Made by a program: the position numbers and the translations under genes. Under the pieces are notes generated by a model. That model was not told the origin of the DNA and searched no databases. It worked only from the letters and a program-made list of their open reading frames with translations. Of a DNA stretch of 55,212 nt, positions 950 to 42,587 are shown piece by piece. Positions within the stretch are counted from its first letter, which is position 1; each line of letters starts with the position of its first letter. The DNA comes from Actinomycetes bacterium. Lineage in GTDB: Bacteria; Actinomycetota; Acidimicrobiia; Acidimicrobiales; Bog-793. The DNA is taken from contig JAJZLV010000074.1 of NCBI GenBank assembly GCA_021803215.1, positions 1-55,212 on the forward strand. The letters run 5' to 3'.

Positions 950-2581
950 GTGATGTGCGATGGACGCAGGCGGCAACCTCGCCGGGAGATCCTCATGGAG
1001 CTGATCGAGACAGAGGTGGAGCAGGGCCGGCTGCTTGGAATCAGGCCAGCCCCCGACCTCGCCGCTTTTCTCGGTGTTCCATACGCCGCGCCGCCTGTCG
1101 GGCCTAGGCGCTTCCTGCCCGCTCTGCCCCCGGCTGGCTGGACGGGCGTCCGCCCTGCGACCGCTTACGCGCCGAGCTCGGTCCAGCCTCCGCCCGACCC
1201 GGCGAGTGCTGTTCCCGGCGACCCGATGGAACAGTCGGAGGACTGCCTTTACCTCAATGTCTGGACCCCGGGGACCGACGAGAGCAAGAGACCGGTCATG
1301 GTGTGGATCCACGGCGGCGGCTATGTCGGTGGCAGTCCCAGCTCCGCTCTCTACTCAGGCCAGTCGCTCAGCCGCGAGGGGGTGGTTGTCGTCACGGTTG
1401 GCTACCGGCTCGGGGTTCTTGGATGGCTCGGCCACCCCGCCTTGGCGGCCGGCGACGGCGAGCTCTGCTCCAACTGGGGACTGAGCGACCAGCTGGCTGC
1501 CCTTTCGTGGATCCGCCGCAACGCCGCTGCCTTTGGCGGAGACCCGGAAAACGTCACGGTCTTTGGGGAGTCGGCCGGCGCAATCTCTATCGCCGCCCTC
1601 TTGGCGGGCGACCGGCCGCGGGAGTCTTTCGACCGGGCGATCATGCAGAGCGGCGCGCCGATGGCGCTTTCGCTCGAGGCAGCCTCTCGAGTCGCCGAGG
1701 AGTTGGCAGCCGTGCTCGGGCTCACCCGTCTCGAGCGCCGGCTGCTCGAGAACGTTCCGACCTCAGAGATACTTCGAGCGCAGTCTGCGATCCGGCAGCG
1801 CTTGAGTGGCGATGTGCTGGCCTTCCAGCCGGTGGTGGACGGGCTCCTGCTCCCGGGTGAGCCGGCCGGCCGGATCGCAAGCGGCAGCGCGGCCGGGGTC
1901 GACCTCCTCATCGGGACCAATCGCGACGAGTGGCGCTTCTGGCTCTTGACAGACCCTGCGCTTCGCGCTCTCGACTGGGCGGGGGCGATCTCCAAGGTGG
2001 AAGGAAGCATCCGACGCGCTGGGCTCGGAGAGCGCCTCGGTGCGGCAGAGTTGGTGGAGTCCTACAAGAACTGGCGGCTCGAGCGAGGCGAGCCCGCCGA
2101 GCCGGCTGACGTCTACTGCGCCATCGCCAGCGACTGGACCTTCCGCCTCCCCTCCATGAGACTGGCCGAGGCCCAAGCGGAGTCGGGCGGCCGCGTCTCT
2201 GCCTATCTCTTCGACTGGGAGTCGCCGCTTTTCGAGGGCCGAGTCGGCGCCTGCCACGCCATCGAGCTCCCCTTTGTCTTCGGCACGCTCGACCACCCGT
2301 TCATCACGTTGTTCTCTGGAGGCGGCGAGCTGGCCGATCGGCTGAGCGGCGCGATGCGCAGCGCCTGGGCCTCTTTCGCCACCTCCGGCGACGCGAGCAG
2401 CGAGCTCGTGGGCCCGTGGCCCGCCTACGGGCGCCGAGACCGGCTGACCAAGCGGCTCGGTCGTGAGATCGAGACGATCTCGGCACCGTTCGAGCCAGAG
2501 CGCCGGCTCCTCGATGAGGCGTTTCCCGTCTATGGTGATCCGACTGCCGTCGGATCGTCGTGTGCCGTCGAGGGGACGTAG
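950..2581 (+). CDS. carboxylesterase/lipase family protein (type B, para-nitrobenzyl-esterase-like)
   Basis: Hallmark motifs are present: LGVPYAAPPVGPRRF, EDCLYLNVWTP, VMVWIHGGGY and the nucleophile elbow FGESAGA. The biological start is probably the ATG at 995 (MELIETEVEQG..). The TAG stop (2579-2581) lies inside the tRNA below. Confidence 0.9.
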   Translation: MMCDGRRRQPRREILMELIETEVEQGRLLGIRPAPDLAAFLGVPYAAPPVGPRRFLPALPPAGWTGVRPATAYAPSSVQPPPDPASAVPGDPMEQSEDCLYLNVWTPGTDESKRPVMVWIHGGGYVGGSPSSALYSGQSLSREGVVVVTVGYRLGVLGWLGHPALAAGDGELCSNWGLSDQLAALSWIRRNAAAFGGDPENVTVFGESAGAISIAALLAGDRPRESFDRAIMQSGAPMALSLEAASRVAEELAAVLGLTRLERRLLENVPTSEILRAQSAIRQRLSGDVLAFQPVVDGLLLPGEPAGRIASGSAAGVDLLIGTNRDEWRFWLLTDPALRALDWAGAISKVEGSIRRAGLGERLGAAELVESYKNWRLERGEPAEPADVYCAIASDWTFRLPSMRLAEAQAESGGRVSAYLFDWESPLFEGRVGACHAIELPFVFGTLDHPFITLFSGGGELADRLSGAMRSAWASFATSGDASSELVGPWPAYGRRDRLTKRLGREIETISAPFEPERRLLDEAFPVYGDPTAVGSSCAVEGT

Positions 2582-2644
2582 CCCAACGGCAGAGGCAGGG
2601 CGCTTAAAACGCCTCCAGTGAGGGTTCGAGTCCCTCCGTCCCCA
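2572..2644 (+). tRNA. tRNA, class I (short variable arm), anticodon TAA by manual fold; isotype unresolved (Phe-like body, Leu-type anticodon)
   Basis: Hand-folded 73-nt cloverleaf. Acceptor is GGGGACG/CGTCCCC (7 bp), followed by T8. The D arm is GCC(C)..(A)GGC with GG in the loop. The anticodon stem is GGGCG/CGCCT with loop C-T-TAA-A-A. The variable region is 5 nt (CCAGT). The T arm is GAGGG-TTCGAGT-CCCTC and the discriminator is A. CCA is not fully encoded (ACCg). Confidence 0.7.
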
Positions 2645-3543
2645 CCGTAGGTGTCACGGCGCGAGACAGCCCATCGGTGGCGGTTTCGCGCCGTTCGCCG
2701 GTCATCTCGGGGAGCAGGCGGTCCTTCACGAAGAAGGTGGGGTGGATGGTGTCGCGTCCGTCGACGACGAGTCGGTGGACGAAGGCTTGGGCGACGGCCT
2801 TGCGCCGCGCGTCGGACCCGTGCAGCAGCTCGTCTTCGAGGTCGGTTCGGAGCGAGTCGAGGCGGCTTTGGTCGGCGGGTCCATGGCGGCGATCCCTTCG
2901 ATCTGGATCACTTTCTCGTGGCGGGCGCGGCGGGCGCGGGCGTTGTCGCTGAGGTCGCGGACCCAGGGCCCGAAGAGGTCGTCGGTGATCGAACCGGCTT
3001 CGAAGGCCATCATGTAGCGCTCGATGGCGGCTTCGGTTTTTTTCAGCTCGGTCTCAGTGGCGAGGATCTCGTCGCGCTGCGAACGCACCGAGGTGGCTCG
3101 CTCCTGGGTCTTGGCGGCGACGGCCCGTTCGATCAGCTCGGGGTCTTTGTAGACGTTGAGGAGCGCGTCGAAGACCGCTTCTTCGAGGACGTCAGCGCGG
3201 AGGCGCTCGCCGACACAGGCGGCCTTGCCGTAGCGCTGGCGGGAGAAGCACGTGTAGTAGCGGTAGCGGTGGCCTTTGCCCGCCGCGGCGACGCCGACGT
3301 GGCTGTGGTGGCAGTGCCCGCAGACGACGAGCCCGGAGAGCATTTGGGAGGGGTGCGCCTGAGCGATGCGCCGGCCGCGGCGTTCGCCTCGTTCGGCGAG
3401 CGGTGCCTGGGCCTTGTCGAAGAGCACTGAGTCGACGAGAGACTCGTTGGGCTGGTGACAGAGGTCGCGGAAGGGCACCTCGCCCGGTAGCTGCGGTTGC
3501 GCAGGATGTCGAGGATCACCTTGGCCGGCAACATCAGCCCCAT
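2604..3543 (-). pseudogene. large serine recombinase remnant (recombinase/Zn-ribbon/coiled-coil part only, multiple frameshifts, no catalytic resolvase domain)
   Basis: ORF 2726..3478 carries LSGLVVCGHCHHSH..RYRYYTCFSRQRYGKAAC, a Zn-ribbon typical of large serine recombinases, followed by a coiled-coil. The preceding piece ..AKVILDILRNRSYR.. is in another frame (ORF 3133..3543). The C-terminal continuation DQSRLDSLRTDLEDELLHGSDARRKAVAQAFVHRLVVDGRDTIHPTFFVKD.. is in a third frame and reads through the antisense of the tRNA 3' half to a TAA at 2604-2606. No N-terminal resolvase domain lies before the next gene. Confidence 0.65.
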
Positions 3544-6876: not shown

Positions 6877-7788
6877 TCAGGGCGACGAGGTCATGCCGGC
6901 GGCCCGCTGACGGCCGCTCTCCCCCGCGGTGCCGCTCCCGGCGCCGAGCTCCGGGCCCGCACCCTCTTCGTCTCCCTCGGGAAGAGGCGCCGCCCAAGGA
7001 TCGATCGGCATCGCGTCAGCCGTCTGGAGGCGGAGCCGGTCTCGCCGGAGCAGGAAGGTCCCGAAGAGGATACCGGCTCCGACGAAGACGAGGGAGATGA
7101 CCTCGACTCCGACGCCGCCGGCGCCGTGGGGCAAGAAGACGTACTCGTCGGTGAAACGGGAGAGGCCGTAGAGCGAGGCCGCCGCGGTGGCGACGAACCC
7201 GATCGGGCCGCCGCGGCGGCGCACGTACTTCTCGACTTGGATGACGACAAGCCAGATCAGGAAGCACTCGGCTGCCTGCAGGAGGGGCACCGGCACCCTC
7301 TTTCCCACCTGGTCGGCGTAGTACATGCCATACCAGGCATTGGTGCGCCGGCCACCGCCTGCCACCATCAGCTGAGGGCCGAGCAGGCGCCCGATCGACC
7401 AGGCGAGGACGAGGACGACCGAGACGAGGTCGGTGGCGACAGAGAGCCGGAGCTTCGGGCACCAGCGGTGGGCCAGCACCAGCCCGACGGGGATGCCGAG
7501 CGCCATGCCCCCGAAGCTCGAGAGCCCCCCGTGCCAGACGGCCAGGATCTCGGCCGGGCTGTGGGCGTAGTAGCTCCAGTGGGCGATGACATGCACCGCC
7601 CGGGCGCCGATGACCGCCGCCACGATGATCCAGATGAAGGCCCGGCCGAGCCAGGCGTCGGAGTAGCCGTGATTGCGGAGCCTTCTCGCGAAGTAGCGGT
7701 AGGCGAACCAGAAGGTGATCGCCAGTCCGATCCCGTAGGTGTGGATCTGGAGAGGCCCGAGGTGGAAGACGACCGGGATTGGCTTCAC
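6877..7788 (-). CDS. lgt: prolipoprotein diacylglyceryl transferase
   Basis: Lgt signatures are present (IHTYGIGLAITF, AVWHGGLSSFGG) in a polytopic membrane protein with a low-complexity acidic/Gly C-terminal tail. Confidence 0.9.
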   Translation of the reverse strand: MKPIPVVFHLGPLQIHTYGIGLAITFWFAYRYFARRLRNHGYSDAWLGRAFIWIIVAAVIGARAVHVIAHWSYYAHSPAEILAVWHGGLSSFGGMALGIPVGLVLAHRWCPKLRLSVATDLVSVVLVLAWSIGRLLGPQLMVAGGGRRTNAWYGMYYADQVGKRVPVPLLQAAECFLIWLVVIQVEKYVRRRGGPIGFVATAAASLYGLSRFTDEYVFLPHGAGGVGVEVISLVFVGAGILFGTFLLRRDRLRLQTADAMPIDPWAAPLPEGDEEGAGPELGAGSGTAGESGRQRAAGMTSSP

Positions 7789-7834: not shown

Positions 7835-9043
7835 TCAGAGGCGCTCCACGACCATCGCCATGCCCTGGCCGCCGCCGACGCACATGGTCTCGAGCCCGAA
7901 GCGCTTGTTCTCGTGCTCGAGGCCGTTGAGCAGGGTCGTCATGATGCGGGCGCCGGTCATTCCGAAGGGATGGCCGAGGGCGATGGCTCCGCCGTGGACG
8001 TTGAGCTTCTCCCAGGGGATGTCGAGATGGCGGGCGGAGGGGATCACCTGGGCGGCGAAGGCCTCGTTGATCTCGACGAGGCCGATGTTCTCGATGCTCA
8101 AGCTGGCCCGCTTGAGGGCCTGGCGGCTCGCCTCGATCGGCCCGAGCCCCATGATCTCGGGGTTGAGGGCGGAGACTCCCGAGGAGACGATCCTTGCCAG
8201 CGGCTCGAGGCCGAGCTGGCTCGCCCGCGTCTCGCTCATGACGAGGACGGCGGCTGCCCCGTCGTTGAGGGGGCAGGCGTTGCCGGCCGTCACCTTGCCG
8301 TCGGGCCGGAAGGCCGGCTTCAGCTTGGCGAGGCCGTCCAGGTTGGTGTCGGGGCGCGGCCCGTCGTCGCGGGAGACCACCGTGCCGTCGTAGAGGGTCA
8401 CCGGCGTGATCTCACGCTCGAAAAAGCCGTTCTCGACGTGCTCGACCGCCAGGTTCTGAGAGCGGCAGGCGAATTCGTCCATCTCCTCGCGAGAGACGTT
8501 CTCGTACTCGGCGACGTTCTCTGCGGTCTGGCCCATGGCGATGTAGATGTCGGGCAGCCCCTCCGGCGGCTGCCAGGAAGGCTGTCCGCCTTCGGCTCGC
8601 TTGGCCGAGCGGGCCTCCGCCTCGGCGAACAGGGCGTTGTGGGTCTCTGGCACCCCGTCGGAGCTGCCCTTCATGAACCGGCTGGTGGTCTCGACTCCGG
8701 CCGCGATGAAGACGTCGCCCTCGCCGGCCTTGATGGCGTGGGCGGCCATGCGGATGGTCTGGAGTGAGGAGGAGCAGTAGCGGTTGACGGTCACGCCCGG
8801 AACGTCGTCCAGGCCGGCCAGGACGGCGACGACGCGGGCGACGTTGAAGCCCGCCTCTCCGGCTGGCTGGCCACAGCCCATGAGGAGGTCCTCCACCTCG
8901 CCCGGGTCGAGCTGCGGCACCTTTGCCATGAGCGCCTGCACGATCTGGGCGGCGAGGTCGTCGGGCCGCATCTCCACGAGCGAGCCCTTGAAGGCCCGGC
9001 CGATCGGGCTGCGGGCGGTGGCAACGATCACGGCTTCTGGCAT
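7835..9043 (-). CDS. acetyl-CoA C-acetyltransferase / thiolase
   Basis: Thiolase motifs are present: N-terminal VIVATARSPIGRAFKGSL, active-site NRYCSSSLQ, and the C-terminal signatures NVHGGAIALGHPFGMTGARI and CVGGGQGMAMVVE. Confidence 0.92.
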   Translation of the reverse strand: MPEAVIVATARSPIGRAFKGSLVEMRPDDLAAQIVQALMAKVPQLDPGEVEDLLMGCGQPAGEAGFNVARVVAVLAGLDDVPGVTVNRYCSSSLQTIRMAAHAIKAGEGDVFIAAGVETTSRFMKGSSDGVPETHNALFAEAEARSAKRAEGGQPSWQPPEGLPDIYIAMGQTAENVAEYENVSREEMDEFACRSQNLAVEHVENGFFEREITPVTLYDGTVVSRDDGPRPDTNLDGLAKLKPAFRPDGKVTAGNACPLNDGAAAVLVMSETRASQLGLEPLARIVSSGVSALNPEIMGLGPIEASRQALKRASLSIENIGLVEINEAFAAQVIPSARHLDIPWEKLNVHGGAIALGHPFGMTGARIMTTLLNGLEHENKRFGLETMCVGGGQGMAMVVERL

Positions 9044-9069
9044 GGCGCGATCTTAAGAAGACCTCGAGG

Positions 9070-9545
9070 CCCTTTACCACTTGGCCGGACGCGGCGAGGC
9101 CCCGGGTAGCCGGTCGGCAGATGCCTCCGTACTCCCCGGGGCCTACACCCTGGCGACTCGAGCCCCCCAACGCTTCCCGGCGCCTTGCGGCCACCGAGTC
9201 ACCCGACTCTGCTCTCCGCCCCTTGCGGGTCGGCCTCGCTTCGTCCCGGAAACCGGTCCTGGGGGGACCGGCCCCGGCGTGGAGCCTCATCACCTACCGC
9301 GGCAGGCAACGGTGCCGACGCTTCGTACCGGCGATCACCTCGCGGCTCTCGCCTTCCTCGGCGCTGCCCCGGCCTCCCGGCTCGCCTCGCGGCTCCCCGT
9401 TGCTCCGGTGCCGCTTCCGGTTTCCCGGTTCCCCTTGCGGTTCACCGTTCCCCCGGTCGCCTTCACCGCCCCCTCCCGGCTCGCCTTGCGGCTCGCCTTC
9501 TTGGAACGGCACTCAGCACCACCTGCTTTGGTGAGTGCATCCTCC
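9070..9545 (-). ncRNA. candidate large structured RNA or structured 5' leader of the thiolase gene (unclassified)
   Basis: The gap has no credible ORF. On the minus strand there are six CCGCRAGG hairpins with GCAA/GCGA tetraloops, at forward coordinates 9179-9192, 9216-9233, 9330-9353, 9379-9398, 9427-9446 and 9478-9497. Four of them have symmetric purine-purine (GA-type) internal mismatches between two short helices; in 9427-9446 there are three mismatches rather than a GA/GA pair. An example is GGC-GA-GCC-GCAA-GGC-GA-GCC. There is also a CCGG-GAAA-CCGG hairpin (9417-9428) and a long bulged hairpin at about 9088-9145. The strand is inferred because the loops are GNRA only in minus sense. Confidence 0.3.
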
Positions 9546-9666
9546 GCCTGTCAGGGCCCGGGCGCAATGGCAAACTCGGAAATACCCGGGTTATCGACAG
9601 GAAGCTCTCTCTTTCCCCCGTTGATCCCCAGGGCTGTCCACAAATTGATCCCCAGAGAGCCCTGCC

Positions 9667-10356
9667 CTAGCCTCCGAGCGACCCGAAGGCGGGCCCGTCC
9701 AGCCGGTCGATCGTGGTGAACTCGGCCACCTGCTTTCTTGAGAGACGCTTCGGCTGGCGCACGGGGACCCCGAGAGCGAGGAGGCCGGCGAGGGCGAGCT
9801 CGGGCCCGGAGCGCAAGAGCTCCTTCACCCGCCGCTCCTCCCGGCAGATCACCGTCGTCATGACGCCGCCGAGCCCCTCGTCCCTGGCGGCCAGAAGGAC
9901 GTTGTGGCTGAAGGGATAGATCGACCCGCCCCCGACGATGCTCTGGCGGCCCAGGCCGTTGTCGAGCACGGCCAGCGAGGGGAGGTGGGCGAAGAGGACG
10001 AGCATCACGGGCACGCTCGCCAGGTTGTCGGCGAACTGGTTCGGCGCCTCCTTTCTGCGGGCAGCCTCGAGGTCGATCGCCGGTCCCTCCCAGCGCCCTG
10101 TGGCGTCCGGGGCGAAGGGGACGAGTCCGTGGGCGAGGTGGGCGGTGTACTCCCTCCAGGCGACCTGGTAGCACTCGGCCAGGGCGGAGCGGAGCGAGGG
10201 CTCTTTGACCACGACCACCCGCCAGGGCTGGCGGTTTCCGCCGCTCGGCGCGAAGCGGGCGGTCTCGAGGATCCGTTCCAGACGGGCGTCTTCCACTTCT
10301 TCGGTAGAAAAAGACCTGATGGCGGCCGTCGTCCGCATTACCTCTCTCAGCTCCAT
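9667..10356 (-). CDS. nitroreductase family protein
   Basis: From ATG 10356 the protein reads MELREVMRTTAAIRSFSTEEVEDARLERILETARFAPSGGNRQPWRVVVV.., a classic nitroreductase N-terminus. The longer ORF reaching 11037 is an antisense-type extension. Confidence 0.85.
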   Translation of the reverse strand: MELREVMRTTAAIRSFSTEEVEDARLERILETARFAPSGGNRQPWRVVVVKEPSLRSALAECYQVAWREYTAHLAHGLVPFAPDATGRWEGPAIDLEAARRKEAPNQFADNLASVPVMLVLFAHLPSLAVLDNGLGRQSIVGGGSIYPFSHNVLLAARDEGLGGVMTTVICREERRVKELLRSGPELALAGLLALGVPVRQPKRLSRKQVAEFTTIDRLDGPAFGSLGG

Positions 10357-10361
10357 GGGTC

Positions 10362-10393
10362 GGTTCCTTTCCGTTCGAGAGGCAAAGGTAACC
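10362..10393. promoter_or_regulatory. imperfect inverted repeat in the 48-bp divergent gap between the nitroreductase and ybjQ-like operon
   Basis: GGTTCCTTTCC-gttcgaga-GGCAAAGGTAACC. The arms are complementary except for one indel and one mismatch. Confidence 0.3.
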
Positions 10394-10404
10394 GTGCCCC
10401 GCTG

Positions 10405-11358
10405 GTGGTAGCCTGCCGCACTCGGGAGCGGAAGGAGAGTCCGACGAGCGATCTCGGGAGTGTCGAGTGGGACGGCAAGGGCCTTCCTCCGGCCGCCGCC
10501 GCCCGCATCGCCCGAGGCCCGGGCGCAGCTCCAGCCAGCCTCATGTCCGTGGCAGGGCAGACCGGACTGGAAGGCTTGGGCTTCGAGGTCGTCGGTGAGG
10601 TGATGGGCTGCGTGGTCCAGCACATCGGCTGGACCGGCTGGGGTGGCTGCGGTTACTACCCCGGTGGCGGCGGACCCTTCGGCATGCAGCAGAGCTACGC
10701 CGCCCCGAACGTGATGAGCGGCGCCGGCGGCTTTGCCGGCTTCGCCCCCTACGTCGACGCCCTCTACTCGGGCTACGACAAGGCTCTCGTGCGGATGCTG
10801 ACCGAGTGCCAGGCGCTCGGCGGAGACGGCGTTGTCGGCCTTCGCTTCACTGTGCGCTCGCTCGGGGAGGAGAACCGGGAGTTCCTCTGCTACGGCACGG
10901 CGGTGAGGGCCAAGTCCTCCAGCAGGCCGAAGAACCTCTTCTCGACCGATCTTCCCGGACAGGACCTCGCCAAGCTGCTGCACGGCGGCTGGGCTGCCGT
11001 CGGCTACGTCGTCGGCATCGCCATCGCCATCCGCCACGACGACTGGGCGACCCGCCAGCAGGCCTCCATGATGGGCGGCAACGCCGAGGTATCCGGCTAC
11101 ACCGACCTCGTCAACTTCGTCCGTTCGGACGCCCGCAAGCAGTTCCGCTCGCGGGTGGTCGCCTACGGGGCCGAGGGGTCGATCTCCTCGAACATCGACC
11201 TATCCATCTGGGAGCGCGAGGCCGGCGAGAACCACCGCGACCACGTCGCCCTCGCCACCATGTCGGGGACGGCCATCGCCCGTTTCCACAAGTCCGAGTA
11301 TGCCCAGACCGACAGCTTGAAGATCCTGCCGCTCGGCGGCCCGAGGAGGAGAAGATGA
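10405..11358 (+). CDS. YbjQ/UPF0145 (putative heavy-metal-binding, DUF74) family protein, two tandem domains with a Gly-rich insertion
   Basis: There are two internal YbjQ-like halves (..GFEVVGEVMG..GGDGVVGLRF..CYGTAVRA.. and ..LFSTDLPGQDL..GAEGSIS..MSGTAIARF). The GTG start at 10405 was chosen because the segment GLPPAAAARIA..GPGAAP aligns with the N-terminus of the downstream paralog (GIPEDAMRRLAEMRPGAPG). ATG 10543 is the alternative start. Confidence 0.7.
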   Translation: MVACRTRERKESPTSDLGSVEWDGKGLPPAAAARIARGPGAAPASLMSVAGQTGLEGLGFEVVGEVMGCVVQHIGWTGWGGCGYYPGGGGPFGMQQSYAAPNVMSGAGGFAGFAPYVDALYSGYDKALVRMLTECQALGGDGVVGLRFTVRSLGEENREFLCYGTAVRAKSSSRPKNLFSTDLPGQDLAKLLHGGWAAVGYVVGIAIAIRHDDWATRQQASMMGGNAEVSGYTDLVNFVRSDARKQFRSRVVAYGAEGSISSNIDLSIWEREAGENHRDHVALATMSGTAIARFHKSEYAQTDSLKILPLGGPRRRR

Positions 11359-37987: not shown

Positions 37988-38029
37988 CAGCTGCGGCCCA
38001 CCGATGCGCCAGCTGTGGCCCACCGATGC
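37988..38029. promoter_or_regulatory. 20-nt direct repeat x2 with 22-bp periodicity (candidate transcription-factor site)
   Basis: The two copies are cagctgCggcccaccgatgc (37988-38007) and cagctgTggcccaccgatgc (38010-38029), 19/20 identical. They lie about 115 bp upstream of the 38144 start. Confidence 0.35.
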
Positions 38030-38143
38030 AATAGCAGTCAGCGACTCGTTTGCCTCCCGATCGGCCTGGGTAGGGGCCCTTCGCGGTGCAGGCCCGTCGG
38101 CGGTCCTGTCCTGAGCCGGTGCCGGGGGTGAAAGGAGCATGAC

Positions 38144-38659
38144 GTGAGCCTTCTAGAGAGGAACTCTGCCCGGCGCGACCTCCCAGCGCTTTTGGCGGGG
38201 GAGGCGGCGAGCAAGGCCGCTCGGGTCGGGGCTGAGATCGGTCAGAGGGCCGAGCAGCTGGCCGAGACGGCTGCCGGCTCGGTGAGCGATCTCGCCCACA
38301 AGACGATCGGCTCGGCCGAGCAGGTGCTGCGCCGGGCGCCCGAGAGCCTTCGTCACCAGGTCGGAGCCGGCACCCAGATCATGACAAAGCTCCCGCGACG
38401 CCCCGCGGTGAGAGGCAGGCCGGCCGCGGGCCGGCGCCCTGCTGGGCGCCGGCTGCTGGCGGCTCTGGCAGCCGTGGTTGCCCTCTCCTTCCTGGTCTCG
38501 ATGGCGATGCGGCTCGCTCGCAAGAAGAAGCGCCAGAGCCAGCTCGCCCCGGTGGATGATCTCCTCGAGCGGCCCGCGGTCGACGACAGCCCACCGCCAG
38601 ACGAGGCGGTGGAGGAGAAGAGCACCGCAGTCGCGAGAGACAGCGCCGACAGGCGCTGA
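38144..38659 (+). CDS. hypothetical membrane-anchored protein
   Basis: The GTG start is preceded by AAAGGAG (38131-38137). The N-terminal half is helical and Ala/Glu-rich. A basic stretch (RRPAVRGRPAAGRRPAGRR) is followed by one TM helix (LLAALAAVVALSFLVSMAM) and an acidic tail. I recognise no family. Confidence 0.5.
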   Translation: MSLLERNSARRDLPALLAGEAASKAARVGAEIGQRAEQLAETAAGSVSDLAHKTIGSAEQVLRRAPESLRHQVGAGTQIMTKLPRRPAVRGRPAAGRRPAGRRLLAALAAVVALSFLVSMAMRLARKKKRQSQLAPVDDLLERPAVDDSPPPDEAVEEKSTAVARDSADRR

Positions 38660-39255
38660 GAGCGACCCGCGAGCCTGCAGCCGGGCACAGAGCCGGTGAG
38701 CAGCTCCACCGTCTCTCGACGAGACAGGTCGTAGCGAACTCCGCCTTTTCGAGCACCACCCCAAGGCGACTCTGGGCGGCCAGGGCGGGCTCTGGGTGCT
38801 CGACGCCGAAAGGGCCCAGGCGGTCCGGTCCCGGTGCTCGAGCACGATCGTCGCCGCCATCGGCTCCGCAGAGGCCGAGCAGCTTGCTGCGGGGTCAGTC
38901 GAGGCCAGAGCCGACCTCGGCCGGCGTCGATCCGTCGGCTGTCGCTTGCAGCCTGAGCCTGGCCACCTGGCGGCCAAGTCCCGCCCGTTTTCTCCCCGGG
39001 GAGACCCGGCCTGGACGCTCGTCGAGAAGGAGCTCCCGACGCTGAGCTACGGGCCAAGACTCACAGGAGCCCGGCGTGGAGCGGGCGGGTGGCGCTCTGG
39101 CGGCTCACACCGCTTCCTCGCCCGCTCGGCCAGCCTCCCAGGCTCTCTCGTTCCGAGAGGGCTGCCAACGGTGCGACCCGGTCGAACGAGACAGGATCAC
39201 CCAGCTCGCTCGAGGGTAGGAAGCCCTCGCCGAGGGCTCCTGGAGTCGCCTCAGC

Positions 39256-39269
39256 TGTAAGCGCTTTCA
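39256..39269. promoter_or_regulatory. LacI-family operator-like palindrome, distal (TGTAAGCGCTTTCA)
   Basis: 13 of 14 positions match the perfect palindrome found 177 bp downstream. Confidence 0.5.
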
Positions 39270-39386
39270 CCGCTGCAAGCCTGCAAGCAGGGGCTTGGTG
39301 CCGGCCGTCGGCTCGGCCGTGCTCGACGCCCCTTGTTCTCGCTTGCTCGGCGACATCGGCGGGATGTTCTTGTTGCAAGAGAAGCG

Positions 39387-39415
39387 TTGACGTGGCCGAG
39401 GCTCGTGCGTATAGT
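39387..39415 (+). promoter_or_regulatory. sigma-70/SigA-type promoter: -35 TTGACG, 17-nt spacer, -10 TATAGT
   Basis: TTGACG is at 39387-39392 and TATAGT at 39410-39415, with an exact 17-nt spacer. The promoter is 68 nt upstream of the lacI-family GTG. Confidence 0.6.
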
Positions 39416-39432
39416 CCCCGGCATCAGATCTC

Positions 39433-39446
39433 TGTAAGCGCTTACA
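39433..39446. promoter_or_regulatory. LacI-family operator, perfect 14-bp palindrome TGTAAGCGCTTACA just downstream of the predicted TSS
   Basis: The palindrome is perfect with a central CG, matching the TGnAAnCGnTTnCA LacI/CcpA-type operator consensus. It sits 18 nt after the -10 element. Confidence 0.65.
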
Positions 39447-39482
39447 GCGCGAAGCAGGGCCGGGGGAGGGAGGGGGTCGTCG

Positions 39483-40595
39483 GTGGCGCTCGAGAAGACA
39501 GCCGATGGCGTCCCGACCATCTATCACGTAGCGCAGCGCGCCGGCGTCTCGATCGCGACGGTGAGCCGGGTGCTGAACGGCCACGAGCAGATCCGTCCGG
39601 AGACCGAGGAGAAGGTCCTGAGCGCAGTCCGAGAGCTCGGCTTCGTCCCGAATGCCTCCGCCCAGGGTCTCTCGAAGGGGCTGAAGCGGATCATAGGCCT
39701 CGTCTTCGCCAACTCCTGGTGGGAGGAGGATCCGCAGTCGGTCGAGGAGAACAGCCTTCTCTTCGCTGACGAGCTGATCCGCGGGGCCCAGGTGGCGGCC
39801 GACCGGCACGCCTATTCACTCTTGCTCTTGAGCTCCGGCGTCACCCATCGGGGGCACGCCTTCTCCGACGTCTTCGGCAAGGTGGACGCCCTCGTTCTGC
39901 TCGACCGGGTGGTGCGCCAGGAGCGAGTCGGCCCGATAGCCAAGCGGGTTCCGGTCGTGCTGCTGGCGGGCAGCGGGCGCTCCCGCTCGGCCACGACGAT
40001 CCGGGTGGACAACGCCGGCGGGATGCAGGCGCTGGCCGAGCATCTCGTGGTGGTGCACGAGATGAGGCGCACCGCCTTTCTCGGAGGCCTGGTCGACAGC
40101 CCCGACAACGACGCCCGGCTGGCGGCCTTCCAGCAGGCGGTCTTCGACCTCGGCGGGAGCTGCGAGATCGACGAGGCCCTCTCGGCCGACTGGACCTCCT
40201 CTGGAGCGGTGGCGGCCGTCGGCCGGCGGCTGCGGAAGCGGAGGCGCCTGCCCGAGGTCATCGCCTGTGCCAACGACCAGATGGCCATCGGGGCCATGCA
40301 CGCCCTCGCCATGGCCGGTCTCCGGGTGCCAGAGGATGTCGCGGTGGTCGGCTTCGACGACATCCCGGTGGCCAGGTACCTGCGCCCCCCGCTCACGACG
40401 GTTCGCCAGCCGATCCGCCAGCTGGGAGCGGCGGCGGTCGACTCGCTCGTCCTGCGCCTGCAGGGGCACGAGCCGGCCCGCGACGTCGTGCTGCCGACCG
40501 AGCTCGTCGTGCGGGGAAGCTGCGGCTGCCCGGCGGTGCCCGACCTCGGCCTCGGGAACGGGAACGGGAGCACGCCCAGGGGGGAGAGGGCGTGA
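39483..40595 (+). CDS. LacI family transcriptional regulator
   Basis: The HTH reads TIYHVAQRAGVSIATVSRVLNG, followed by a periplasmic-binding-protein-like sugar-binding core (..ACANDQMAIGAMHAL..VVGFDDIP..LTTVRQP). The stop overlaps the permease GTG (GTGA). Confidence 0.9.
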   Translation: MALEKTADGVPTIYHVAQRAGVSIATVSRVLNGHEQIRPETEEKVLSAVRELGFVPNASAQGLSKGLKRIIGLVFANSWWEEDPQSVEENSLLFADELIRGAQVAADRHAYSLLLLSSGVTHRGHAFSDVFGKVDALVLLDRVVRQERVGPIAKRVPVVLLAGSGRSRSATTIRVDNAGGMQALAEHLVVVHEMRRTAFLGGLVDSPDNDARLAAFQQAVFDLGGSCEIDEALSADWTSSGAVAAVGRRLRKRRRLPEVIACANDQMAIGAMHALAMAGLRVPEDVAVVGFDDIPVARYLRPPLTTVRQPIRQLGAAAVDSLVLRLQGHEPARDVVLPTELVVRGSCGCPAVPDLGLGNGNGSTPRGERA

Positions 40596-41566
40596 CGACG
40601 CTCGCCCGGCGGCTCGGTGTCTACCTTCTGACCGCCTGGGTGGCGATCACCGTCAACTTCCTCCTCCCCCGGATGATGCCCGGCAACCCGGTCAGGATCC
40701 TTATCGGCAAGATCCACGGGCGGGTCACCCCCCAGATGGTCCGCGCCATCGAGGAGCAGTTCGGCGTCGGGCTCCACCAGGGGCTCTGGTCCCAGTACCT
40801 CCACTACTGGGACCAGCTGTTCCACCTGAACCTCGGGGTCTCGATCGCCCTCTCGGCGCCCGTCTCCTCTGTGCTCAAGCAGACCGTTCCCTGGACGGTC
40901 GGCCTCATCGGCGCCTCGACGGTCCTGAGCTTCCTCCTCGGCACCTTCGTCGGCACCTATCTCGGCTGGCGCCGCGGCACGGTCTTCGACGCCGTGTTGC
41001 CGGTGGCCACCTTCTTCCAGGCTGTGCCCTACTTCTTCTTCGGCACCGTGCTCCTGCTCGTCTTCGCAAGCCATCTCCGCTGGTTCCCCGAGCTCGGCGC
41101 CTACAACGAGGCGCTCACCCCCCACTGGCACTGGGCCTTCGTAGCGAGCGTCCTGCGCTACGGCCAGCTCCCTGCCATCACGGTCATCGTGAGCTCCGTC
41201 GCAGGCTGGATCATGGGCATGCGCAACATGATGGTGACGACCGTGGCGGAGGACTTCGTCCTCATGGCGGTCGCCAAGGGCCTCCCCAAGCGCAAGGTGG
41301 TGGCCTACGCCGCCAGGAACGCCGTGCTCCCGAGCATCTCGAACTTCTCCCTCGCCATGGGGCTGCTCGTATCCGGTGCGCTCCTCGTCGAGCTCGTCTT
41401 CAACTACCCGGGGGTCGGCGACCTCCTCCTCACGGCGGTGCAGAACGAGGACTATCCGCTCTTGCAGGGGATCTTCCTCGTCATCACCTTCACGGTGCTC
41501 TCGGCAAATCTGATCGCGGACGTCGTCTACATGGCGCTCGATCCACGCATCAGAAGGGAGGCCTGA
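40592..41566 (+). CDS. ABC transporter permease (Opp/Dpp family, DppB-like)
   Basis: The N-terminus LARRLGVYLLTAWVAITVNFLLPRMMPGNP is typical. The protein has 6 TM helices and ends ..DVVYMALDPRIR. Confidence 0.88.
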   Translation: MTTLARRLGVYLLTAWVAITVNFLLPRMMPGNPVRILIGKIHGRVTPQMVRAIEEQFGVGLHQGLWSQYLHYWDQLFHLNLGVSIALSAPVSSVLKQTVPWTVGLIGASTVLSFLLGTFVGTYLGWRRGTVFDAVLPVATFFQAVPYFFFGTVLLLVFASHLRWFPELGAYNEALTPHWHWAFVASVLRYGQLPAITVIVSSVAGWIMGMRNMMVTTVAEDFVLMAVAKGLPKRKVVAYAARNAVLPSISNFSLAMGLLVSGALLVELVFNYPGVGDLLLTAVQNEDYPLLQGIFLVITFTVLSANLIADVVYMALDPRIRREA

Positions 41567-41567
41567 G

Positions 41568-42587
41568 GTGGCCTCGACCACGGCAGCCGCGGCGCCCCAG
41601 CTTCCCGGCACCCTCGAGGGCCAGCTGGGAAAGAGCCCGGCACGGAGGCGCCCGAGGCGCCGCCGGGTGCTCGCCCTGCCCCGGTCCGGCAAGGTCGTCC
41701 TCGGGCTCGTCATCCTCGGCGCCTTCGTGGTTCTGGCGATCGTCGGACCCTACGTGGCGCCCTACAACCCGAGCTCGACGAACTTCACGCCCGGGCTCCA
41801 CCCCGACGCCGCCCACTGGTTCGGCACCACCTTGCTCGGACAAGACGTCCTCTCGCAGGTGCTGGTCGGCGCCCGGCCGACCCTCGTCGTCGGCTTCGTG
41901 GCGGGAGCCATCGCCACGGGGCTCTCGATGGTGATCGGGGTGACTGCCGGCTACATCGGCGGCGCCACCGACGAGGGCCTCTCGCTCGCCTCGAACGTCT
42001 TCCTCGCCATCCCCGGGCTGCCCCTTCTCATCGTGATCGACACCTACCTGCCCCAGGGCGCCCGTTCGAACACGATCCTGATCGGCGCCGTCATAGCCCT
42101 CACAGGCTGGGCCTGGGGGGCGAGGGTGCTGCGGGCGCTCACGCTCTCGCTCCGCAACCGAGACTTCGTCGAGGCCTCCCGCATCATCGGCGAGAGCCGC
42201 TGGCGGATCATCTTCGTCGAGGTGGTGCCGAACCTCTTGGCGGTGCTCGCCTCGTCGTTCCTGTTCACGCTCCTCTACTCGATCGGGACCTACGTCGCCC
42301 TCGCCTACATCGGCGTGACGGACACCGCCCAATGGAACTGGGGGTCGATGCTCTACTGGGCGCAGGCCAACAATGCCGCCACGGGCAACCAGTGGTGGTG
42401 GTTCCTGCCGCCCGGCCTTTGCATCGCCCTCGTCGGGATGGGGCTGGCCCTTCTCAACTTCGGGATCGACGAGTTCATCAACCCGCGCCTGCGAGCCGCC
42501 GGCGTCACGGGCCGCTCCCGCCGGAAGGTCAAGCTCTCGAACCGGCCCCGTCTCGGTCTCACCCCCGTCGTCGAGGCGCCGCGATGA
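41568..42587 (+). CDS. ABC transporter permease (Opp/Dpp family, DppC-like)
   Basis: Motifs include ..HWFGTTLLGQDVLSQV.., EASRIIGES and ..IDEFINPRLR. Confidence 0.88.
   Translation: MASTTAAAAPQLPGTLEGQLGKSPARRRPRRRRVLALPRSGKVVLGLVILGAFVVLAIVGPYVAPYNPSSTNFTPGLHPDAAHWFGTTLLGQDVLSQVLVGARPTLVVGFVAGAIATGLSMVIGVTAGYIGGATDEGLSLASNVFLAIPGLPLLIVIDTYLPQGARSNTILIGAVIALTGWAWGARVLRALTLSLRNRDFVEASRIIGESRWRIIFVEVVPNLLAVLASSFLFTLLYSIGTYVALAYIGVTDTAQWNWGSMLYWAQANNAATGNQWWWFLPPGLCIALVGMGLALLNFGIDEFINPRLRAAGVTGRSRRKVKLSNRPRLGLTPVVEAPR

Follow-up and report, generated by a model that had tools for sequence, protein, structure and literature searches.

An intergenic region of an Acidimicrobiales genome as the probable site of a new structured non-coding RNA gene

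This analysis concerns an intergenic region in a 55,212-nucleotide stretch of DNA from an actinobacterium of the order Acidimicrobiales (GenBank assembly GCA_021803215.1, contig JAJZLV010000074.1; hereafter the window, with a G+C content of about 70%). The region is bounded by the stop codon TAG (9669–9667) of a nitroreductase-family open reading frame (ORF) and by the ATG (9043) of a thiolase gene. We are highly confident that this gap holds a real gene for a structured non-coding RNA (ncRNA) encoded on the minus strand, and the comparative evidence presents it as a new, well-supported and fairly large structured ncRNA at the level of an RNA family. An earlier note on the sequence had proposed a conserved structured RNA of minus sense at this position, and that proposal is supported both by homology and by covariation that exceeds the two controls used.

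Intergenic DNA homologous to the gap was obtained from about 39 loci, which represent about 29 distinct sequences and come from Acidimicrobiales-type metagenome-assembled genomes (MAGs) and from peat or soil metagenomes. The homologous regions which the earlier note had suggested looking for do exist. The region upstream of the thiolase was matched by nhmmer in two MAGs (L001 and L004), and the metagenome loci were obtained with a 19-base pattern taken from the most conserved block, the 3' hairpin (GCTACCCGGGGNNNNNCCGCGTCC). This pattern gave 49 metagenome stretches, 36 of which carry the element as judged by profile search; the rest are chance matches within genes. Two further loci were found through synteny, without the pattern: L137 by way of a nitroreductase homologue and L140 by way of an MFS homologue. 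In both the entire architecture is present, with differences within the pattern region; in L140 GCUAC is replaced by ACUAC, the loop is UCCG and the foot of the stem is formed by A–U and G–U pairs. The host G+C content of the loci ranges from 0.60 to 0.73, and the named proteins most closely related to the flanking ones come from Acidimicrobiales MAGs, the best relatives of the window thiolase being from Acidimicrobiales and Acidimicrobiia MAGs. The RNA is so far restricted to Acidimicrobiales-type actinobacteria. Three subfamily hidden Markov models (HMMs) find one copy in the window. The signature was not found in viral contigs, and on this ground a phage origin was ruled out.

Four subfamilies can be told apart. 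In subfamilies B, C and D the RNA is 270–317 nt long and mostly carries three or four C-GNRA-G motifs (one in L129), whereas in subfamily A, which includes the window, it is 455–512 nt long and carries 8–13. The family core is about 270–320 nt, and the surplus length of subfamily A consists of hairpin modules added in the 5' half. Each module is laid out as a purine-rich 5' flank, a stem of 3–4 bp, a purine–purine mismatch, CCC-GCAA-GGG and a purine-rich 3' flank, and the purine content is 55–63% across the family. Common to all subfamilies are the first few nucleotides of the predicted transcript (CACCAAGG-like), a UUCG-type hairpin, a GCC-GNRA-GGC-type hairpin and the 3' hairpin with its tail.

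Covariation was assessed on a MAFFT alignment (A3) of 13 subfamily-A sequences that begins directly behind the −10 element of a predicted promoter and extends to the conserved 3' end. A MAFFT alignment across subfamilies (A2) misaligns the variable middle and yields only 23 pairs, so the structure was judged separately for each subfamily. On A3 RNAalifold predicts 103 pairs in 17 helices, and 93.8% of the cells form standard pairs. Thirty-seven pairs are changed on both sides, compared with 15.7 ± 2.7 when partners are shuffled (0 of 500) and 15–18 when partners are slid by 1–3 columns, counts that must be read in the light of the relatedness of the aligned sequences. The covariation check advised in the earlier note is thereby passed, on A3 as well as on the 3' hairpin discussed below, and the tetraloop-capped hairpins hold most of the signal. 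Folding is also strand-asymmetric: the minus strand folds better than its dinucleotide shuffles (z = −3.3, 0 of 20), whereas the plus strand does not (z = −1.5).

The copy in the window is 62% purine and has ten C-GNRA-G motifs. It contains six copies of the octamer CCGCRAGG, all on the minus strand, at 9183–9190, 9221–9228, 9338–9345, 9385–9392, 9433–9440 and 9484–9491. The octamer is not enriched across the whole window (13 observed, 19.4 expected from shuffles), yet these six copies are crowded into 309 nt of a single strand, a span in which 0.02 copies would be expected at the rate seen in the rest of the window (Poisson P of about 8e-14). The cluster described in the earlier note is thus real, and every module that it quoted was found in its place. 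The features of the predicted RNA are as follows.

9085–9532, minus strand: predicted ncRNA of about 448 nt; conservation starts just past the −10 element and ends at CCGCGTCCGG.
9478–9497, minus strand: module GGCGAGCCGCAAGGCGAGCC, a GCAA-capped hairpin GGCGAGCC-GCAA-GGCGAGCC that aligns with helices 3 and 4; helix 3 is compensatory in three of three pairs.
9427–9446, minus strand: module GGTGAACCGCAAGGGGAACC, a GCAA-capped hairpin overlapping the next feature.
9417–9428, minus strand: hairpin CCGG-GAAA-CCGG; the two overlapping hairpins (9417–9446) align with helix 6, which has seven pairs, four of them compensatory.
9379–9398, minus strand: module GGGGAGCCGCGAGGCGAGCC, a GCGA-capped hairpin GGGGAGCC-GCGA-GGCGAGCC that aligns with helix 7.
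9330–9353, minus strand: module GGCGAGAGCCGCGAGGTGATCGCC, a GCGA-capped hairpin GGCGAGAGCC-GCGA-GGTGATCGCC; helix 8, with eight pairs, six of them compensatory.
9253–9271, minus strand: hairpin CCGGUCC-CCCCA-GGACCGG, present in the minimum-energy and centroid folds; its GCC.AGG core is kept in subfamily A.
9176–9235, minus strand: three hairpins within a conserved, predicted multi-branch domain, in which hairpins 15 and 16 lie inside helices 13 and 14.
9216–9235, minus strand: first hairpin of this domain, GGCCGACCC-GCAA-GGGGCGG; a UUCG-capped hairpin occupies this place in relatives.
9196–9209, minus strand: second hairpin of the domain, GAGUCGGGUGACUC.
9176–9195, minus strand: third hairpin of the domain, GGUGGCC-GCAA-GGCGCCGGG.
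9098–9143, minus strand: irregular 3' signature hairpin, GGCCCCGGG-A-AGU-A-CGG..loop..CCG-GCU-A-CCCGGGGCC.
9085–9094, minus strand: 3' tail CCGCGUCCGG, where sequence conservation ends; its invariance is partly forced by the search pattern.

Within the multi-branch domain helix 15 has seven pairs, of which four are compensatory. The loop at the position of the first hairpin is GCAA in L001 as in the window, and the other sequences have UUCG or CUCG there. The 3' hairpin corresponds to a bulged hairpin of roughly 45 nt that the earlier note had placed at about 9088–9145; the hairpin exists, with an exact span of 9098–9143. What appears as an internal loop is a continuous irregular helix (GGG, an A·A mismatch, AGU paired with GCU, a bulged A and CGG paired with CCG). 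Over 18 distinct variants, the two pattern-independent loci included, 97.2% of the cells pair and five pairs are compensatory, against 1.1 in shuffles; ten of the 18 pairs are invariant, although the search pattern itself imposed part of the invariance seen in the 3' arm. A U·G pair is replaced by C–G in L004 and L092 and by U–A in L140. The loop is an unusual AUCU in the window and GCAA, GUAA, UUCG, UCCG or CUCC in relatives, and such swapping among loops is typical of structural RNAs. The tail, which reads CCGCGUCU in the synteny-found L137, is the probable 3' end of the RNA. Purine–purine mismatches recur at fixed positions in the stems; the sequence is compatible with sheared tandem G–A pairs and tertiary contacts. 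Partners proposed by RNAduplex for the 5' end of the RNA are inconsistent across members.

Between the conserved 3' end and the −10-like element of the thiolase there is one more small hairpin.

9060–9071, minus strand: hairpin GGCCTCGAGGTC followed by TTCTT (in the RNA, GGCCUCGAGGUC and UUCUU).

It is specific to the window, not being kept in L001 or L004, and could act as a weak terminator for the RNA in this genome.

The gap is non-coding. The earlier note had seen no protein-like ORF in it; that judgement stands, although both strands do have long open frames (on the plus strand of 212, 161 and 137 aa, on the minus strand of 72 aa), because stop codons are rare at 70% G+C. A Pfam scan of these frames gave no match, and the 212-aa ORF has no homologue among 5.8 billion proteins, so that the blastx-type check for a decayed gene also returned no protein. 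Third-position G+C is 0.64–0.77 in the frames of the gap, compared with 0.89–0.93 in the flanking genes. Across the relatives no frame stays consistently open, 156 of the 190 gap runs in the alignment are not multiples of three (34 are) and the substitutions show no 3-nt periodicity. A collagen-like or low-complexity peptide from the 72-aa minus-strand ORF (GEPQGEPGG...) was considered and ruled out by the codon-position G+C, the unconserved frame and the non-triplet indels. A ribosomally synthesized and post-translationally modified peptide precursor beside a SagB-like nitroreductase is likewise unsupported, since the gap does not code for protein and the nitroreductase does not accompany it in every locus.

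Contrary to the view taken in the earlier note, the RNA occupies only part of the gap. The portion from about 9666 to 9540 is made up of a predicted promoter and upstream regulatory DNA, with the following features.

9539–9567, minus strand: predicted sigma-70-type promoter, with −35 TTGCGC (9567–9562), a 17-nt spacer and −10 GAGGAT (9544–9539).
9590–9599, minus strand: TGTCGATAAC box, invariant in subfamily A.
9611–9654, minus strand: four direct repeats TG[G/T]GGAY / GGGGGA, starting at 9654, 9642, 9630 and 9619 (spacing 12, 12 and 11 nt).
9621–9631 and 9645–9655, minus strand: duplicated (C)TGGGGATCAA, belonging to direct-repeat family D10.

In all 31 listed loci the −35 element reads TTGAC[G/C/T] or TTGAT[C/T] and the −10 element has the form NANNNT (CAGAGT, CAAGCT, CATACT, CAAAGT, AAGAGT or CAAGAT). 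The spacer between them is 17 nt long, or 18 nt in three loci, and has no sequence conservation. Conserved hexamers separated by a spacer that is fixed in length but not in sequence are characteristic of a sigma-70-type promoter. L140 has the same layout. Transcription would start near A9532.

The upstream repeats are spaced by about one helical turn. The boxes TGTGGAY, CTGGGGAY and GGGGGA are kept in all subfamilies, and TGTGGA stands at a nearly fixed distance from the −35 element. Of the 31 loci, 16 from subfamilies B, C and D have exactly 86 nt between them and two others 85 or 87 nt, whereas the distance in 11 loci of subfamily A is 96 nt. The duplicated CTGGGGATCAA, which the earlier note had taken as an element of the RNA, belongs to this set of four DNA repeats, the first of which is an extra copy specific to the window. 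The TGTCGATAAC box occurs two or three times in relatives with a phasing of about 21 nt (three times in L004), and in subfamilies B, C and D its position is taken by TGTGAACTT, TGTTCATAA and TGTCGAGAA; boxes of the TGTCGAYAA type number one to three per locus, about 21 nt apart, with 9599–9590 in the window. In the same three subfamilies a GGATCTCGCGAA block adjoins the −35 element. We infer that the upstream repeats are protein-binding sites of the kind used by transcription factors. Together with the TGTCGAYAA boxes they are similar to sites of the response-regulator or iteron type, and in reverse complement to DnaA boxes (TTRTCSACA). A replication origin or DnaA-box cluster nevertheless seems unlikely, there being no dnaA, dnaN or par genes in the window and the cumulative GC skew turning near 40 kb and not here.

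The RNA could not be assigned to a catalogued family, in keeping with the earlier note, whose suggested Rfam check returned no family match. At the gathering threshold the 4227 models of Rfam 15 match the window only at a tRNA (2572–2644). With permissive filters (8900–9800, E ≤ 10) the best alignment is to Chloroflexi-1 (RF01698), over the 3' hairpin, at 19.5 bits against a gathering threshold of 80; in L127 it reaches 20.8 bits. These alignments (E = 0.34–2.4) have only a GC-rich hairpin in common with the RNA described here and are at the level of chance. Six loci of other subfamilies gave nothing relevant in Rfam at E ≤ 5, and full-text literature searches found no paper describing the RNA.

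How such an RNA might work is a more tentative matter. In the explanation that we propose, a sigma-70-type promoter (9567–9539), preceded by phased transcription-factor-like repeats at which a regulator would bind, would drive the gene. The transcript, a minus-strand RNA of some 450 nt that would start at about 9532 and end at about 9085, would fold into a chain of short stems with purine–purine mismatches, stable tetraloop caps (mostly C-GCAA-G) and purine-rich linkers, followed by a multi-branch domain and then by the highly conserved irregular 3' hairpin with its CCGCGUCC tail. The RNA would act in trans as a protein-binding scaffold or decoy, its repeated, near-equivalent hairpin modules offering several binding sites for one partner and the invariant 3' hairpin serving as an element for recognition, stability and 3'-end formation. 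We prefer a scaffold or decoy because lineages differ in how many of the near-equivalent modules they have, whereas the unique core and the 3' hairpin are fixed. Taken by itself this mode of action is a tentative suggestion; weighed together with the structured ncRNA gene, the explanation as a whole is the best available and one that we are mildly inclined to accept.

Several considerations weigh against this explanation. Most members were fished out with the 3'-hairpin pattern, which biases the sample and inflates the apparent invariance of that hairpin. The RNAalifold structure and the pair counts come from the same alignment, a circularity that the slid control corrects only in part. The promoter of the window is a weak match to the consensus and fails a strict consensus scan, and the start site, the 3' end and transcription itself are deduced from conservation. 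The 3' hairpin is not followed by a canonical U-rich terminator, and a 5'–3' closing helix (GGACG/CGUCC) put forward by RNAalifold for subfamily A fails in the window and in L001, shows no covariation and was rejected. The scaffold or decoy role is drawn solely by analogy with repeat-bearing sponge RNAs, and the gene neighbourhood indicates no partner protein.

Among RNAs of the scaffold or decoy kind the closest parallel is with CsrB and RsmZ, which share with the RNA described here an array of similar short hairpins, purine-rich linkers, a variable number of modules (3–4 or 8–13 in this family) and a stand-alone gene under transcription-factor control, which is putative here. The repeated unit is different: here it is a C-GNRA-G stem with a purine–purine mismatch and not a loop bearing GGA, and the multi-branch domain and the 3' hairpin are unique, not repetitive. 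No CsrB-type GGA was found in the hairpin loops, which are GCAA, GCGA, GAAA and UUCG; GGAG or GAGG occurs 15–26 times per subfamily-A RNA, in the linkers and stem flanks and not in the loops. To our knowledge, CsrA is not a typical actinobacterial protein.

A special case of the scaffold or decoy would be an RNA that binds RNA polymerase, as 6S and Ms1 RNAs do, and the first alternative to be weighed is that this is the Acidimicrobiia counterpart of those RNAs: abundant, tuning RNA polymerase in stationary phase and either a hyper-divergent homologue of Ms1 or its analogue. Ms1 (MTS2823 / scr3559) is a small RNA of Actinomycetes, 230–310 nt long, that binds the RNA-polymerase core; its promoter, of the primary-sigma kind, is conserved, and an 'oxidoreductase' gene often lies beside it (PMC9130861, PMC4191392). 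Ms1 of S. coelicolor and of M. smegmatis have no similarity detectable by BLAST, Rfam detects Ms1 only near the mycobacteria and none is reported in Acidimicrobiia (PMC9130861, PMC4191392). The likeness is therefore of a general kind: the same phylum, a free-standing single-copy gene, a strongly conserved promoter of the primary-sigma type, a length of a few hundred nucleotides, fast divergence and, in many loci, an adjoining nitroreductase-family oxidoreductase. There is also a short resemblance at the 5' end (GCGAG.CCAAGGAC), in which the subfamily-A start GCGAGCCAAGGAC may be compared over 13 nt with GCGAGACCAAGGAC of S. coelicolor Ms1 and GCGAGGCCAAGAC of M. smegmatis Ms1, sequences taken from the supplements of PMC9130861 and PMC4191392; the resemblance is anecdotal.

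As a sign of homology the GCGAGCCAAGGAC resemblance was rejected, not being significant against shuffled decoys, and the scores of the three subfamily HMMs against both Ms1 sequences lie within the range of 1000 dinucleotide shuffles. S. coelicolor Ms1 has no match by nhmmer or blastn in the window or in the family loci. These sequence comparisons are a weak test, given that Ms1 RNAs are mutually dissimilar across orders (PMC9130861). The Ms1 gene lies between an oxidoreductase and a HAD-IB hydrolase ('inhibition of morphological differentiation'), the latter being its most specific synteny marker; no such hydrolase is next to the RNA described here, either in the window or in any locus inspected, where the neighbours are instead thiolase, P450, luciferase-like monooxygenase, lgt, MFS and DMFA2_C genes, and the window holds no origin-proximal genes. 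Ms1 is a long rod with a central bubble and two terminal hairpins; the RNAalifold consensus for each of subfamilies A, B, C and D is predicted to be a string of tetraloop hairpins followed by a multi-branch domain, with no rod around a central bubble. With 6S RNA (RF00013), which is expected in most bacteria, binds the sigma-A/70 holoenzyme of RNA polymerase and, like Ms1, accumulates in stationary phase, the likeness lies in a single-copy, stand-alone, promoter-driven gene, and 6S is apparently absent from Actinobacteria, which leaves room for an analogue. The differences are its size (about 180 nt against 270–512 nt), the lack of an Rfam match at E ≤ 10 and the lack of a helix with an open-promoter-like bubble. 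Membership of the Ms1 or 6S families is not supported; a similar function is possible, and we consider RNA-polymerase binding, whether by a counterpart of these RNAs or as a special case of the scaffold or decoy, to be unlikely.

A second alternative is that the RNA acts through its own three-dimensional structure, its GNRA loops docking in receptors to give a compact fold or a multimer, in the manner of OLE, ROOL, GOLLD and raiA. Like these, it is large, has many covarying helices, is rich in GNRA loops and restricted to one lineage, and came to light by comparison without a function; the many C–G-closed GNRA loops (8–13 per subfamily-A RNA), the fixed positions of the purine–purine mismatches, the covariation-supported multi-branch domain (helices 13–16) and a 3' hairpin whose sequence is invariant beyond the needs of pairing are all in accord with such an architecture. 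It differs from them in matching none of their Rfam models, in its host lineage and in its variable number of modules. The number of modules varies about three-fold between subfamilies, which would be unusual for a single compact tertiary fold. Moreover, GNRA and UNCG loops swap freely at several positions, which makes specific tertiary contacts by those loops unlikely, and no conserved receptor-like motif or pseudoknot was identified. We regard this alternative as rather improbable.

The third alternative, that the region is a cis-acting leader (a riboswitch, an attenuator or a processing platform) for the gene downstream, would have thiolase as its target here and lgt ancestrally. It draws on two observations: in subfamily A a same-strand gene begins 22–190 nt past the RNA, and lgt (6877–7788 on the minus strand of the window, where it follows the thiolase) lies downstream of the RNA in four subfamilies. 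A leader should keep a constant place before one class of gene on the same strand, and this was not found. The downstream gene is thiolase in the window, L001 and L004, P450 with luciferase-like monooxygenase in most other subfamily-A loci (L083, L085, L089, L094, L098 and L121) and lgt directly in L114, L129 and L140. In eight loci (L099, L105, L109, L110, L112, L119, L123 and L124) it is on the opposite strand; among these convergent genes are DMFA2_C (L099), a thiolase-like gene (L110) and, in both L105 and L123, a long unscanned ORF. The distance from the RNA to the next gene and the intervening sequence are unconserved, and there is no conserved expression platform. The thiolase, for which no Shine–Dalgarno sequence is visible, has a −10-like TAAGAT (9050–9055) 6 nt before its ATG, and TATGAT (L001) and TATGCT (L004) each stand 7 nt before the ATG in the relatives, which suggests that this gene has its own promoter and a leaderless mRNA. 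A leader is thus very unlikely, and the 5' untranslated region (UTR) or riboswitch of the thiolase, an identification that the earlier note had left open, was set aside with it.

Nor is the RNA the 3' UTR of the nitroreductase gene. That gene lies upstream in 17 loci and in the window, but for subfamilies C and D, and for some members of B, the upstream gene is divergent, being an MFS transporter in L086 and L108 and an unscanned ORF in L090, L129, L112, L123 and L114, and the RNA has its own conserved promoter. Several of the nitroreductase homologues examined (L130–L136) have no RNA downstream. The RNA is independent in its action of both the thiolase and the nitroreductase, because the neighbours change between loci. 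The ancestral order was probably nitroreductase, RNA, lgt, with the thiolase or the P450 and luciferase-like monooxygenase inserted later.

That the region acts not as RNA at all, being instead a feature of the DNA (a repeat or mobile remnant, a CRISPR-like array or an array of protein-binding sites) or a decayed gene, is largely refuted and almost certainly wrong: there are internal direct repeats (9373–9398 and 9472–9497, 92% identical) and short tandem periodicity, and the upstream part does look like a DNA-level array of protein sites, but compensatory changes keep the pairing on one strand, on which folding is also favoured, TRF detects no regular repeat array, CCGCRAGG is not enriched outside the locus, the single copy in the window and the absence from viral contigs do not fit the dispersed repeat (REP- or MITE-like) that the earlier note had named as a possible refutation, the hairpin stems differ from one another within the sequence, yet stems and linkers alike are kept position by position between genomes, which is the opposite of CRISPR or REP, and there is neither protein similarity nor a coding signal.

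Large bacterial RNAs that are supported by covariation and belong to no family are rare, and 6S, OLE, raiA, ROOL, GOLLD and Ms1 each began a line of work. Peat, soil, activated sludge and marine systems harbour abundant Acidimicrobiia, which are genetically almost unstudied, and in the literature searched no 6S or Ms1 RNA is reported for them. We put forward with reserve the idea that the RNA represents an undescribed Acidimicrobiia-specific regulatory class: a single-copy, strongly promoted RNA of the housekeeping type, with a variable array of GNRA modules on a conserved core, which would take on a task that no known RNA performs in this lineage and might, for example, titrate RNA polymerase or a global regulator and be controlled by a dedicated transcription factor on the phased repeats. 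If it were such a missing global regulator, the management of RNA polymerase in stasis would become directly testable in these actinobacteria. The family also offers a defined architecture of promoter and operator, short and expanded variants that form a natural series for the study of structure and function, and a seed alignment for annotating the gaps that gene callers leave empty.

Some observations on the surrounding DNA may be added. The 5' half (10351–11037, minus strand) of the 456-aa 'nitroreductase' ORF has a third-position G+C of 0.68, compared with 0.89 in the half that bears the domain, and the homologues are mostly about 250 aa long, with one of 525 aa; the true start of the nitroreductase is probably near 10350–10420, or else the upstream part is a separate, poorly conserved domain. 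In another actinobacterial lineage (L131–L134, 4782–5285) the homologous nitroreductase is followed by a 167-aa ORF without a Pfam family and then by a HAD-type hydrolase, a 263-aa ORF without a Pfam family, tlyA/FtsJ and NAD kinase, with no RNA of the family.

Elsewhere in the window, the tRNA gene at 2572–2644 (plus strand) is immediately followed by a 250-aa ORF (2726–3478, minus strand) whose only domain is a serine recombinase zinc ribbon, an arrangement that looks like what is left of an element once inserted at the tRNA. The cumulative GC skew climbs to a maximum near 40 kb (about 38000–42000) and drops steadily thereafter. The genes around this point encode a LacI regulator, an ABC peptide/sugar transporter and a GH1 glycosidase, with no origin or terminus genes nearby, and the switch may reflect gene orientation only.

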